This document shows, in pieces, positions 5,437 to 41,663 of a stretch of DNA of 64,000 nt. Each line of letters begins with the position of its first letter. Position 1 is the first letter of the stretch. The notes below the pieces were generated by a model. That model had not been told where the DNA came from. It searched no databases and saw nothing but the letters and a program-made list of their open reading frames with translations. A program made the position numbers and the translations under genes. Where the stretch lies: the NCBI GenBank assembly GCA_051294905.1, contig CM119371.1:37450001-37514000 (forward strand), in the 5' to 3' direction. Origin of the DNA: Botryllus schlosseri. Its lineage: Eukaryota.

Positions 5437-5610
5437 CTATAGAATGTAATTGTGATTTAAAATATATAAGTATATAGTTCTAGTTCTATAGTTGCGCGTT
5501 TTATCAATCCGGTATAGTTTGTGCAGGTAGACCGGAGAACCTATGAGACTGGCTCTGCCAACAACCCAGGTTAAGAAGATAAGAAAGACTCCTTTTTGTA
5601 TTAAATAATC

Positions 5611-8076
5611 ATGTGTATTATGATCTCTGTTTTAGCATGCGTACTAAGTATCATCGTCATGAGTGACATACCTATACCGCAATATATCCAGAACCTCACC
5701 GATGACGATTTACGCAAAGAACTCGCAAAAAATGGCGAAAAGATCGGCCCGATCACTCCGACTACGAGAGCAATCTACAAGAAACGCCTCTTCAGGAAGC
5801 TTGCGTCCACAAGCCGACCGGTTGAAGATGGAGTACGTCCTACAAAGCCTGAAACTACCAATAACACACAAGTTGAGACTGAAACAAAGCAAGCTGTGAT
5901 TCCCAAACGTGATACAGTAGACAGATCTACAAACACTGTGATATTTCAACAAGACAATGATTCAAGGAACATAATTCAACAGAATAGCAAGGTTGACACT
6001 GATCGTAGTAAGACTTTGATATCATCAGAGCCTGACAAAGTCTTCTATGGTGTGCACATACCGAAGTCTGATGACGCTCACGATTTTGACGATCCGATTG
6101 TGTTTGAAAATAAATCGACGGCACTGTCGACATTAAAGAAGCATAAATCCGCGAGATTTAAGGAATTTCAAACGTTGAAACAGGCCGAGGAATTCTCGCT
6201 GTGCGGTAACCATGTATTGGAAGCAAAAAGTTCTCTATCGTTAATGTTAAGTTCGAAGTCAGAAAACGTTACTAAGGATTACCCTCAATTAAAACAACAG
6301 GACTTGAATAATCTAGTGCGACGTATAGAATCGGGCGATTTATCGGGTATGCGCGAGTTGGTTTGGTCTAACCCGAAATATCTAATCAGTTCAGCGGACG
6401 GTCCGGTCAGTCTGAAGCCGAACGCACGCTATAACGCACTCCACATCGCCGCGAAAAGTAATCAATCGGAAATTTGTAAAGAAATATTAACGCTGTTGAA
6501 TAATCCGCACTTCCAATCGTTGCTATTTTCTAATCTTGACGATGAAATTGTGTCAAATTATCGCACAGAGCATATTGTCGACTCTTACTTGAACACTCCC
6601 GACAAAATAGTGTTCGAAACTCCGCTGCATTTCGCCTCCAAAGCAGGATTCAAAGATGTAGTTCGCGAATTAATAGCGTATGATATTTGCTCGTTATGCA
6701 GCGTTAACAAATTCGGTCAAACGGCATCTGATATTGCGTGTAGTCGCGCATCGAGTGATGTGAAAGGGTGTAAAGATGAAATCAAACGAATGCTTTGTCC
6801 GCGATATTATGTTCCCTTGCTTCGTTGCCATGACAACTCAGAAAGAGCAGTGGTTGGTGAACCGATCAATTCATTGAAAGATCTTCGAACAGAAGGGTTT
6901 TGTCCGTTGAATTCTAATTTATCGGTAAAAGCAATCGCAGGCCCCATGCCAAAAGAGGACGCTTATGAGTTTCGGAATATTTGGGCCACCCCCTCAAAAC
7001 AGAAGCGTTTTGGGGATAAGTACAGATTCCTGCGTCGTAAGGATTTTGAAAAAGGTGACGAACAGATCGGTCGGGAATTAGCATCGCAGCGGGCCATACG
7101 TTGGCTCGAATTTTGGGATTTCTTGGATGATTTCGCGGATTTTTCGACAACCGAAGGAATGCAGAAGCTGGAGGATCATCTGAAATCAAATATTCAGCCA
7201 AGCGTCGATCTGGAAATGGAGAAATTGACAGATTCTTTCGAGTGCATGGGTTTATCGTGCGATAAAAACTCGGAAGAGGATTGCACCCCACGCGCGGCAC
7301 ATGATTTGCTTGGGGAGATGCCAAGCACTCCGAAACGCTTTGAGAGAATTCTTACAAATAATGTCTCGATGAGTGGAAATACAAACAATACATCACGAAT
7401 GAACTTTGGTTTTGATAACAGGCAGAAAAACCAATTTACAGCGGTATCTACGGCTGATATGCCAGTTTCTGTATCCGCGCTTCAGGGTACGTCATGTAAT
7501 GGCCGCTCGGACATTGCAGAGTCACAAAACACTGGTTCTGGCGATGTCATGAATCAGATTGGAAAAGTTGAAAAAGACTCGAAATTAAGATATGACTCGA
7601 AAGCCGAAAATGACTCAAAGTTCAAAATTGACTCAAGATTCGATTTTGCTCCGAAAAACCTATCGGAACAAATGTCTGTCGACAACTTTCATGTTTTGAC
7701 CGATTATCGCAACGCTACCGAGTCTGGCAGTGAGATATTTAGCAGTTTGTCTGCGTCTACGATTAGCGACACGTGCCCAGGCGTACAAAATGTCTTTATA
7801 ACCGGTTCGTCTCCTACTAAACGTGACCAGGATGTCGTCACTGCGATAGGTGAAACGCACGTTGATCCCAACAAGTTTCCTGCGATTAATCGTTGGCGCA
7901 ATTCAGTTCTTTCTTACGCTGAAAATGATCGCCAGAAATGGTCGACACCAAGAAAAAGGGGGGGACCCTCTCTGTTTCCATCGTGCGGAAACGTAGATCG
8001 TGAAACTACGATGGGCTTGCGACGCGTGTTGTTGGATTTTTTTGTGAAAAACAAACTTGAGAGTGTTGATCGGTGA
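5611..8076 (+). CDS. ANKLE2: Ankyrin repeat and LEM domain-containing protein 2 (ANKLE2/LEM4), single coding exon
   Basis: 821-aa ORF. LEM domain (LTDDDLRKELAKNGEKIGPITPTTRAIYKKRL), caulimovirus viroplasmin-like segment (VFYGVHIP...ALSTLKKHKSARFKEF), ankyrin repeats (YNALHIAAKSNQ, FETPLHFASKAG), then ANKLE2-typical motifs (YYVPLLR, AIAGPM, DFEKGDEQIGRELA, WLEFWDFLDDFADF, PTKRDQDV, KFPAINRW). The start may be 5611 (hydrophobic N-terminus) or 5659 (MSDIP). Confidence 0.93.
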   Translation: MCIMISVLACVLSIIVMSDIPIPQYIQNLTDDDLRKELAKNGEKIGPITPTTRAIYKKRLFRKLASTSRPVEDGVRPTKPETTNNTQVETETKQAVIPKRDTVDRSTNTVIFQQDNDSRNIIQQNSKVDTDRSKTLISSEPDKVFYGVHIPKSDDAHDFDDPIVFENKSTALSTLKKHKSARFKEFQTLKQAEEFSLCGNHVLEAKSSLSLMLSSKSENVTKDYPQLKQQDLNNLVRRIESGDLSGMRELVWSNPKYLISSADGPVSLKPNARYNALHIAAKSNQSEICKEILTLLNNPHFQSLLFSNLDDEIVSNYRTEHIVDSYLNTPDKIVFETPLHFASKAGFKDVVRELIAYDICSLCSVNKFGQTASDIACSRASSDVKGCKDEIKRMLCPRYYVPLLRCHDNSERAVVGEPINSLKDLRTEGFCPLNSNLSVKAIAGPMPKEDAYEFRNIWATPSKQKRFGDKYRFLRRKDFEKGDEQIGRELASQRAIRWLEFWDFLDDFADFSTTEGMQKLEDHLKSNIQPSVDLEMEKLTDSFECMGLSCDKNSEEDCTPRAAHDLLGEMPSTPKRFERILTNNVSMSGNTNNTSRMNFGFDNRQKNQFTAVSTADMPVSVSALQGTSCNGRSDIAESQNTGSGDVMNQIGKVEKDSKLRYDSKAENDSKFKIDSRFDFAPKNLSEQMSVDNFHVLTDYRNATESGSEIFSSLSASTISDTCPGVQNVFITGSSPTKRDQDVVTAIGETHVDPNKFPAINRWRNSVLSYAENDRQKWSTPRKRGGPSLFPSCGNVDRETTMGLRRVLLDFFVKNKLESVDR

Positions 8077-8235
8077 TACGAATTGAGTATTTTTGGTTGT
8101 CTGTCTTCATGCTCAATATATCTCGTTCCCTGTGTGGTGAGGCTGTGATTTGTTATTGTTGATCAGTTTCATTGATATCTTCGAAGCAACGCAATGAAAA
8201 GACGCCATCGAATAATATACTGATATATAGATATA

Positions 8236-8292
8236 CCCGAATAAATTTGGTTGACACTCGTCAGGGGTATTCTTCAGCAACTATTAGAGAAT
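8236..8292 (-). mobile_element. Degenerate fragment of the hammerhead-bearing Penelope-like family in the ANKLE2 3' region
   Basis: The reverse complement reads TAGTTGCTGAAGAATACCCCTGACGAGTGTCAACCAAATTTATTCGGG, matching 40937-40984 with the GAAA core mutated. Confidence 0.7.
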
Positions 8293-12245: not shown

Positions 12246-12289
12246 GCTGACGATTACCCCTGACGAGTGTCAGCCGAAACTATTCGGGT
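12246..12289 (+). ncRNA. Minimal type I hammerhead ribozyme motif (copy with one stem III substitution)
   Basis: GCTGACG-ATT-ACCC-CTGACGA-G-TGTCAGC-C-GAAA-CTAT-TC-GGGT. The core is intact but the stem III palindrome is broken (ACTATT). Confidence 0.6.
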
Positions 12290-38449: not shown

Positions 38450-38556
38450 GGTAATTCTCTACTAGTTGCGGATGATTACCCCTAACGAGTGTCAGCCGAA
38501 AATATTCAGGTTCATTTCAGTATGATTACGCTGTTCAAGTATACCTCCAAGATGCT
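38450..38556 (+). mobile_element. Degenerate copy of the hammerhead-bearing Penelope-like family
   Basis: AATTCTCTACTAGTTGCGGATGATTACCCCTAACGAGTGTCAGCCGAAAATATTCAGGTT...TACCTCCAAGATGCT. The core CTGACGA is mutated to CTAACGA. Confidence 0.75.
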
Positions 38557-39914: not shown

Positions 39915-40780
39915 CTCTATTATCATTAGGGCGATTTTTTACTTGAAAAACCTAATATTATGCACTAAACAATGGAAATTTTGCTTTTTTTTACTTTAAA
40001 AACTGCAATTTTGACAACATGTTGCCAGCATATATGTAAATTAGGCTTTTTTTCGCAAATTATGTTAGAATTGCACTACTTTTCGTAATTTCTGATTGGA
40101 ACTCTGTGTCTTTACGAAGTAGCCTGGCCCCGAAAAACACTATTTGAATAAATAAAATCAAAATTTTACTTTAAAAAACTTTATTTTAACGATGTCTCAG
40201 ACGGCACTGGCCGTCCCCGGTTAGTGAGCAGCTGTCTTATCGTAAAGTTTAGTAGCTCGCACAAATGAATGTCTGCCGCTAGGAAGGCCTCAACCAACTT
40301 GCTCTTGAAGTCAGCCTTTGAACTTTTGCGTTGGTAGTATTCGATACTCTAAGCAGACGTTCATTTTTTACTGACGATTGGTGCCTTTCTACTCTAAAAC
40401 GCCTGTCACAGCTCAAGAATTGACTGCACGAGAATCAAAACAGTTTGGAATTTGGGTGCCTGCAAAACTCCTGCATAGAAATGGAAACTTATTTGTTTTG
40501 TGAGTATGACAATTTTGGCATTTCAAAAAGCAAAACCGAAGCAAGAACCGCACAATACCCACAATTGCCGTGAAATCAGTTTGAATGTTGCGGTAAGTTG
40601 AGCATAACACCTTATCCACTTATTAGTTTCATTTGACCGTTCATAATTCACATAGAGCAGAGAATGAGCCTTCTATAATGGCGGGCCTGTAAAATAGCCT
40701 ACAATCTGTAAAATTTGAACAGCTTCTTTGAGGTACAGAACTTCAATATACAATTGAATAGCATATTCATATTAAAATGA

Positions 40781-40824
40781 ACCCGAATATTTTCGGCTGA
40801 CACTCGTCAGGGGTAATCGTCAGC
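40781..40824 (-). ncRNA. Minimal type I hammerhead ribozyme motif (left arm)
   Basis: Exact reverse complement of 40942-40985. Confidence 0.68.
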
Positions 40825-40941
40825 AACTAGTAGAGAATTCGAAAGAACAGCGTATATCAACAATCGTAAATCATGCTGGTGACGTCATATTTTGTGTTAC
40901 GATTGTTGATATACGCTGTTCTTTCGAATTCTCTACTAGTT

Positions 40942-40985
40942 GCTGACGATTACCCCTGACGAGTGTCAGCCGAAAATATTCGGGT
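40942..40985 (+). ncRNA. Minimal type I hammerhead ribozyme motif (right arm)
   Basis: Stem I ACCC (40952-40955) with GGGT (40982-40985); core CTGACGA (40956-40962); G40963-C40971 closing loop TGTCAGC; GAAA (40972-40975); palindromic AATATT stem III; UUC triplet with predicted cleavage after 40981. Confidence 0.68.
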
Positions 40986-41282
40986 TCATTTTAATATGAA
41001 TATGCTATTCAATCTGTAAAATGTAAAATGATAAGTTCACTAAAAGTACAGACGTCAACGATACCAAACAAGTGCAAATTGCAGAAAATTTTTAACTTTG
41101 CAGACAATTCTGACAAGTTTTTGACATAACGCCACAATTTTGACAAAATTTAGAATTTTTTGCTCTGTCAAAAAGAGCAATGCTAATGATCGCATTGTTT
41201 GCGGTCAATTCATTTGTGAGATAACAATGAAGGAGCAGTAAAACGCAATAACATTAAGCTCATTTACATGCCCGCATTGGTA

Positions 41283-41663
41283 GGTTCCATACTATTACCG
41301 AGAATGCTAGTACCGAGATAGACATTACCGAAAATGCTATTACCGAGAACGGACATTACCAAGAATGGACCTTACCGAGAACGGACATTACCGAGAATGG
41401 ACATAACCGGGAATGTCCAATGCCAAGAATCTAGCTGAATGTAACGGACGTTGTCGAGAAATTTATACCTGAGAATCGATACCGAATGTGACAACGACGT
41501 GCTGCACACACACGACCTGTTCATATGCGTAACATGCCTGTATTTCATGTATCTGTCCAGTGTCCATTCTCGGTAATGTCCCTTCTCGGTAAGGTCCTTT
41601 CGCGGTGTTGTCCTTCTCGGCATTAGCATTCTCGGTAATAGCATACTCGGTATTGACCGGACA
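41283..41663. mobile_element. Foldback-type MITE with tandem ~16-17 bp subterminal repeats
   Basis: (CATTACCGAGAATGGA)-like repeats at 41290-41430 and their inverse (TTCTCGGTAATG) at 41563-41652. No clear TSD. Confidence 0.6.

Follow-up and report, generated by a model that had tools for sequence, protein, structure and literature searches.

The question raised at positions 40942 to 40985 of our window, the whole 64,000-nt stretch of the Botryllus schlosseri genome that was analyzed, is whether loop II of a putative hammerhead ribozyme pairs with the bases just 5' of stem I and, if so, whether this pairing would help the ribozyme or hinder it. An abstract by Lünse is said to state that most known hammerheads have a pseudoknot or another contact between the bases preceding stem I and loop II. 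The first-pass annotation of this locus had proposed a 7-bp pseudoknot between GCTGACG (40942-40948) and the loop TGTCAGC (40964-40970), had pointed out that the upstream strand repeats the core heptamer CTGACGA, and had offered two readings, an activating contact or a competing fold that switches the ribozyme off.

The motif at 40942-40985 and its copies in the window

The positions in the annotation are all correct, including those of the core (40956-40962) and of the 5' strand of stem I (40952-40955), and the heptamer repeat is indeed present upstream at 40943-40949. The proposed pairing stands as a 6-bp helix, in which 40942-40947 (+) pairs with 40965-40970 and which is indicated by both sequence and covariation. 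Its seventh pair does not stand, given that G40948, in the linker at 40948-40951 (+), lies opposite U40964 as a G-U that is not a conserved standard pair; just 3 of the 12 lineage representatives have a pair at this position, and we rejected it as a conserved pair. Stem I is formed by 40952-40955 (+) and 40982-40985 (+). The core from C3 to A9 (40956-40962, +) was assigned from its sequence, from pattern matches across the genome, and from a U3-A8 swap in sister lineages. It is followed at 40963-40971 (+) by a 1-bp stem II, G10.1-C11.1 (G40963-C40971), which closes the 7-nt loop that holds the 3' strand of the pseudoknot. The segment 40972-40981 (+) contains G12-A14, the self-complementary stem III/loop III hexamer at 40975-40980, and C17 at 40981, and the hammerhead consensus places the predicted cut between 40981 and 40982 (+). 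As judged from the tandem copy L028, an ATG at 40996-40998 (+), 14 nt past the predicted cut, is homologous to the first Met of an RT-endonuclease ORF; the ORF itself is missing at this locus.

The core CUGANGA...GAAA...UH with G10.1-C11.1 and A15.1-U16.1 fits a type I hammerhead, and these pairs are intact in 14/14 representatives. The open-ended stem I is backed by covariation in this set, with both-sided changes at three of the four core-proximal pairs. No Rfam family matched within the window at gathering score, and the hammerhead model RF00163 reached 15.1 bits, against a gathering score of 34, in one of eight loci scanned. Perfect 6-nt complements of the loop occur in 221 of the 63,986 14-nt stretches of the 64-kb window (0.35%). 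Judged by its sequence, this is a hammerhead of type I, and the terminal repeat in which it lies is that of a young Penelope-type retroelement.

The window holds five copies of this family, and the 40942 copy itself is a dead fragment. An identical, inverted copy that the annotation did not list lies at 40781-40824 (-; core at 40810) and forms an inverted repeat with it. Both belong to a 5'-truncated Penelope insertion at 40713-41013, which is built from a pair of terminal-repeat fragments in inverted orientation that end 72 and 32 nt beyond the cut sites. Read-through RNA of this insertion folds into one long hairpin (-221.5 kcal/mol; 0/100 shuffles as stable) that buries the ribozyme, and the 40942 locus is thus very unlikely to act. 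The pairing reported at 12246-12274 is intact in the copy at 12246-12289 (+), where 12246-12252 faces 12268-12274 and the stem III palindrome is broken. This copy is a member of the same family, and it therefore adds no independent support. Two decayed copies, also absent from the annotation, lie at 38468-38511 (+; core at 38482), where core G5 and the pseudoknot 5' strand have changed, and at 8235-8278 (-; core at 8264), where G12 is lost. An intron-free ANKLE2-like gene occupies 5605-8076 (+), with an uninterrupted 823-aa frame and matches to the LEM, ankyrin, and ANKLE2 third domains; one decayed ribozyme copy lies on the opposite strand about 160 nt beyond its stop. About 280 nt downstream of the element, two 16-bp tandem arrays stand in inverted orientation at 41289-41655 and probably represent a further small repeat element.

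The host element

A first look with a 121-nt stretch gave 1,701 candidates in the 495-Mb genome, and the core pattern with a 7-nt loop gave 7,008 genome matches versus 0 for a reversed control. RT ORFs were present in several of the 30 loci retrieved. In L028, the end of one ORF is followed by the terminal repeat with the hammerhead and then by the next ORF, and in both this tandem copy and L356 the hammerhead sits in the terminal repeat of an element that encodes an RT with a C-terminal GIY-YIG domain. The element has an RVT_1 match, and the GIY-YIG Pfam family PF01541 was matched for 2 of 120 homologues. The Penelope context assumed in the annotation is supported by these tandem copies, with their RT ORFs, RVT_1, and GIY-YIG; the clade label Penelope/Poseidon is our assignment from domain order. 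The tandem unit is about 2.7 to 2.8 kb long. L356:1-2951 is an intact young tandem copy of lineage D2 that would be a good test element; its unit measures 2,778 bp, and its 850-aa ORF has an identical counterpart among the proteins of a public collection.

In the element, the predicted cut lies 14 to 19 nt before the start codon. The helix is therefore upstream of the start codon, and coding cannot explain its covariation. The RT-endonuclease proteins of family A are 55 to 62% identical to those of C and 58 to 60% identical to those of D2. A tree of 14 protein pieces, drawn without the E, F, and U lineages, gave A, B, and (C, D2) with starred support, and U1 is linked to the element through its ORF start. 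A search for homologous proteins, without DNA context, found 627. The protein-led search for related elements with DNA context found none in viral contigs and one in genome contigs (L358, 37% identity), in which no matching motif was seen by eye. L358 is a Penelope-type RT fragment whose 1.4-kb contig is deposited as part of a cyanobacterial metagenome-assembled genome, where it is probably animal contamination.

Covariation of the 6-bp helix

Other lineages were found by pattern searches that excluded the dominant family, and their flanks were then read. The upstream and loop hexamers are GCTGAC/GTCAGC in families A, B, and F, ACTGGC/GCCAGT in C, ACTGAC/GTCAGT in D1, ACTAAC/GTTAGT in D2, GCCGAC/GTTGGC in E, CGTGCC/GGCACG in U5, and TGTGCC/GGCACA in U2. 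The abundant lineage U1 carries TGTGCC/GGCACC, with 5/6 paired, and a repeated composite carries GGTGCC/GAAACC, with 4/6 paired. Our main set comprised 12 representatives that were chosen by hand as the commonest form per lineage, with two imperfect ones included and older decayed groups (such as L089, L099, L107, L108, L388, and L389) omitted. In this set, 69 of the 72 cells at pairs 1 to 6 are paired, and both sides have changed at five of the six pairs, transversions included. Both-sided cells number 17, compared to 4.5 ± 1.7 in shuffled sets, and 0/500 shuffles reach this value, although the shuffle tests overstate significance given that the representatives are hand-chosen and the lineages related. 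Slid registers are 24 to 35% paired, versus 86% in register. A parsimony count gives at least 8 double changes and 3 breaks for the helix.

The larger set of 114 distinct copies, many of them chosen for mutant loops, has 90 both-sided cells versus 39.8 ± 7.4 shuffled, and an earlier set of 14 sequences, among them L089, L099, a further loop mutant, and L182, which is off register, beat 500/500 shuffles. When two pairs were left free in the search, 98 of the first 100 of 527 genome rows were, by eye, fully Watson-Crick in three haplotypes (46/30/22), 2 were G-U, and none was A-C. Among the first 100 of 445 rows of a U-core search, 24 had the perfect U5 form and 14 were the broken composite (by eye). 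In single dead copies, changes in the loop have no compensating change, as neutral decay predicts, and we rejected an apparent single-copy compensation in L074 because two other copies with the same loop are uncompensated. Covariation in both segments had been suggested as the check on the pseudoknot, and the pairing passed it clearly in the 12 representatives, the 114 copies, and the free-pair rows.

The end of the helix is separated from the core by 8 nt in 12/12 representatives. This distance is made up of the linker and the stem I 5' strand, and its composition ranges from a 4-bp stem I plus 4 nt to a stem I of up to 7 bp plus 1 nt; 9-nt subvariants are also present. Loop II is 8 nt long in two of the 12 representatives. 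In the sister lineages, the core pair C3-G8 has been swapped for U3-A8. At the level of sequence, it is shown that the helix, stem I, G10.1-C11.1, the self-complementary stem III, and the 8-nt distance have been kept via compensatory changes, and we consider the 6-bp pseudoknot almost certainly real and selected.

The U3-A8 swap is found both in an F-like lineage with the family A helix (L377-L379) and in the divergent U lineages (L363-L375 and L384-L389), so that either two separate origins or a transfer by recombination may lie behind it. L390 and some U-core rows belong to a repeated composite, present on several contigs, in which about 280 nt separate two U-core repeat fragments in inverted orientation. 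The pseudoknot is broken in one fragment and the spacer is 3 nt longer in the other, and the composite may have spread as a unit without a working ribozyme.

Stem III is a self-complementary hexamer that differs between family A and families B to F, and in the U-core lineages it is, by eye, a near-palindrome with a central U-U. Palindromic stem III has been taken as a sign of dimer cleavage (PMC4209133 and the available portion of PMC6765202). By analogy, a hexamer that differs between families yet stays self-complementary would be such a sign here.

Competing folds and rejected features

We considered whether loop II might be conserved for pairing with the core instead. The hairpin between core and loop is absent in 5 of the 12 lineages and weak in another 3 (about -0.8 kcal/mol or less), and it reaches -4.1 to -6.0 kcal/mol in only 3, whereas the pseudoknot duplex is -4.5 to -10.8 kcal/mol in all 12. 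We rejected the hairpin as a conserved switch given that it is strong in only 3/12 lineages. Its patchy strength, set against a pseudoknot duplex that is stable in 12/12, suggests that it is a hazard that the helix would remove. In the predicted monomer fold of family A, loop II pairs with the core and the ribozyme is inactive, a prediction from a program that cannot form pseudoknots.

The duplicated core heptamer, although present here, is not conserved; it occurs in families A, B, and F only. It was rejected as a conserved decoy because it is missing in 9/12 representatives and as a second working core because, by eye, it has no closing 10.1-11.1 pair in register. Two other groups with longer loops were set aside. 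Family G, with an 11-nt loop, was rejected as a hammerhead, given that its core match belongs to another element with three internal repeats, lies within one of these, and is accompanied by no in-register stem I; in its loci L359-L362 (G000:C1:7565400-7566400 and three others), the internal repeat with the core also holds a 10-bp inverted repeat, and these loci are not ribozymes on present evidence. The 12-nt-loop family (L380-L383) was not counted, since no stem I was found in 4/4 copies read. This very abundant repeat, the majority of the first 100 of 3,276 rows, is U-A-core-like and has a short direct repeat of the loop upstream.

Comparison with known hammerheads

The closest relative in architecture is the RAGATH-1 or PK hammerhead (RF03152; Zhan 2024, PMC11300833, in the part of the text available), which has the same type I order, a helix II of G10.1-C11.1 only, a 7-nt loop, and a 6-bp pseudoknot strand 5' of helix I. 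In its crystal structure, as described in the same excerpt, the place of helix II above G10.1-C11.1 is taken by the 6-bp pseudoknot, which runs parallel to helix I. The RAGATH-1 model aligns at the same G-(7 nt)-C stem II and was the best Rfam ribozyme match for two of the eight loci scanned. Its scores were 22.6 and 16.4 bits, versus a gathering score of 56.3, and covered model positions 25 to 77 only, leaving 1 to 24 unmatched. Compared with the accessible description of RF03152, the motif here lacks helix IV and the A-rich minor-groove linker, its partner strand lies 1 to 4 nt from helix I, its stem III is a short palindrome where RF03152 has a stable hairpin, and it is hosted by an animal retroelement. 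Overall, there is no support for a RAGATH-1-like helix IV, given that 48% of the cells of a candidate 4-bp helix are paired and 284/500 shuffles do as well; 3 or 4 pairs are possible in this region in families A, B, and F. The Penelope motif is not a member of RF03152.

Perreault 2011 (PMC3088659, partial text) predicted a brace of at least four Watson-Crick pairs linking the side of stem I to that of stem II in about 40% of hammerheads, across all three types. That work also tested a 1-bp stem II with a 6-bp pseudoknot, in which disruption of the pseudoknot slowed cleavage 20- to over 100-fold, compensation restored it, and a change in spacing also hurt; the example is a type II hammerhead from a metagenome. 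A repetitive type I group was excluded from its stem-length analysis, and the portion available makes no Penelope link.

The minimal PLE hammerhead (PMC4209133) shares with our motif the type I order, the location in a terminal repeat, the short helix I, the palindromic helix III implying dimers, the thousands of mostly truncated copies, the inverted pairs, and the U3-A8 core variant. The metazoan motifs described there have a long helix II (at least 3 bp), an extra base after A9, and no recognizable contact between helices I and II, whereas in the motif here stem II is a single base pair, the extra base is missing, and a 6-bp brace covaries. Truncation of a tested minimal PLE motif at its 5' end made no clear difference, and Penelope hammerheads have been described as being without tertiary interactions (PMC6155905, in the text available). 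The short-stem-III Penelope hammerheads of Lünse 2017 (PMC5785218, going by its title and by papers that cite it) have the same very short stem III, dimer cleavage, and Penelope association. The type I hammerheads with a short helix II from chrysoviruses and fusariviruses (PMC13725137, available sections) likewise have 0 to 2 bp in helix II and a cut just upstream of an ORF; they differ in having a long helix III and are reported there to lack clear loop-loop contacts and to be slow in vitro.

Pattern scans of metagenome and viral sequences gave 185 loci, nearly all of them chance matches; at least two had a stem I of at least 4 bp, and at least one (L182) had the helix. L182, from a public metagenome record, has the same layout with TGACGC/GCGTCA at a 9-nt distance. 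Directly downstream of this hammerhead, L182:44-145 (-) has two hairpins resembling histone 3' stem-loops (27.7 and 18 bits; gathering score, 34). In the PMC8557442 supplement, on Naiad elements with "HHR_core" motifs, five 8-mers were found in 21 places, none of which had the layout by eye, a comparison that falls short of a full test. In the Naiad consensus file of that supplement, four 3' ends have a split core with, by eye, the cleavage-site strand between the core halves. Their stems I, II, and III all appear pairable, and these ends resemble the non-circularly permuted hammerheads of PMC10085705.

We found no description of a pseudoknotted Penelope hammerhead in the literature, including the available portions of PMC8557442, PMC6765202, PMC10085705, PMC6155905, PMC7229834, PMC6466107, PMC8490949, PMC7936874, PMC8782182, PMC13725137, and bioRxiv 10.64898/2026.07.22.740005; there is an appreciable chance, well short of even, that one has already been drawn, for example in Lünse 2017. 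The brace is a known principle (Perreault 2011, PMC3088659; Zhan 2024, PMC11300833), and its Penelope version is one for which the consulted parts of the literature gave no description.

Evidence on cutting and insertion

Read ends did not accumulate at the cut site in any of three RNA raw-read runs. These are ordinary cDNA libraries, of which 3 to 6% of each run was read and which mostly capture read-through of truncated copies, and the result neither shows nor excludes cutting. Reads on the terminal repeat came from both strands, and 64 to 98% of them continue into unrelated sequence. In one run, three reads joined opposite strands at the cut site, and these were not counted. Among 55 family A copies, 30 end 28 to 47 nt past the cut, 24 end 65 to 74 nt past it, and one is the tandem reference. 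None ends at the cut, and insertion therefore does not need it. An anole element uses an uncut template and a two-start "tail," and its hammerhead cut only with the element's protein (PMC11167929); the family A insertion ends match both the "tail" and the uncut template. Those Penelope hammerheads that have been tested cleave slowly, depend on a second copy or on the protein of the element, and can be dispensed with for insertion in vitro (PMC4209133, PMC11167929).

Discussion

We hold that the pairing is probably an activating stem I/loop II pseudoknot that replaces helix II, combined with a dimer-type palindromic stem III. Of the two readings offered in the annotation, the activating one is favored, given that the helix is compatible with stem I, keeps a fixed distance to the core, and has the crystallized 1-bp/7-nt geometry, while the competing fold is unconserved. 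The activating role is one that we infer by analogy. During transcription, the 6-bp helix would already form while the 3' strand of stem I has yet to be made, and would keep loop II off the core, with which it could otherwise pair in families A, B, and D. The helix would stack on G10.1-C11.1, as in the crystallized pseudoknot hammerhead, and the 8 nt of stem I strand and linker would span to its far end, so that helices I and II would be parallel. Stem III would be too short within one copy, and cutting would thus require a second copy, as in a tandem transcript. A cut 14 to 19 nt ahead of the start codon could release unit-length RNA or reset the 5' end of an mRNA, and transposition would proceed from uncut RNA.

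The observation that insertions come from uncut RNA could also be turned the other way, given that slow cutting would then benefit the element. The helix might be an off-switch that locks loop II to the 5' flank, blocks catalysis, and shields the template until protein or a second copy remodels it. The predicted monomer folds of several families do have the helix without stem I, and one paper, known to us from its title, deals with an alternative tertiary structure that attenuates a satellite-RNA hammerhead. However, the helix uses no bases of the core or stem I and is therefore compatible with the active fold, stem I covaries alongside it, and its geometry is that of a fast, crystallized hammerhead. 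A further brake also seems unneeded, since hammerheads with an unbraced 1-bp stem II already run at about 0.01 per min or less in the viral examples (PMC13725137, available sections). We therefore regard an off-switch as quite unlikely. It is unlikely, too, that a real helix is kept mainly for a noncatalytic job, such as a shape recognized by protein or a control element for translation or transcription just ahead of the start codon. The location of the motif just before the ATG would suit such a job, as would the RNA reads without a sign of cutting and the finding that catalytic mutants had no effect on insertion in vitro (PMC11167929). What speaks against it is that the catalytic core is conserved too, including the paired swap of C3-G8 to U3-A8, and that the helix is free to vary in sequence yet keeps a constant distance to the core.

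We also considered that the complementarity could be a by-product of local duplication or chance that all copies inherited, as might be supposed from the core heptamer repeated in the upstream strand of the window's family and from the single decayed copies whose changed loops are uncompensated. The pairing nevertheless stays in the 9/12 representatives without the heptamer repeat, and the both-sided changes at 5/6 pairs between lineages, transversions among them, refute this explanation unless the representatives are unrepresentative. We judge it very improbable.

Going beyond the activating pseudoknot itself, we tentatively put forward a broader possibility that we think more likely wrong than right. 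The motif may represent an undescribed animal Penelope hammerhead that joins a fast RAGATH-1-type pseudoknot core to a dimer-dependent stem III. Such a ribozyme would be fast and gated only by a second copy, would cut tandem transcripts before the start codon without protein, and could be widespread in animals and missed by searches that require a real helix II.

In summary, the structural principle itself is not new, and what our analysis adds is a selected brace across deep lineages, which indicates that the quality of the fold matters in at least this Penelope clade. The natural compensatory variants, together with the intact young element L356, provide material with which to test rate, dimer gating, and the effect on translation. 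Given that standard models miss the motif, with no Rfam match in the window against thousands of genome matches to the core pattern, the number of ribozymes in animal genomes may be underestimated.
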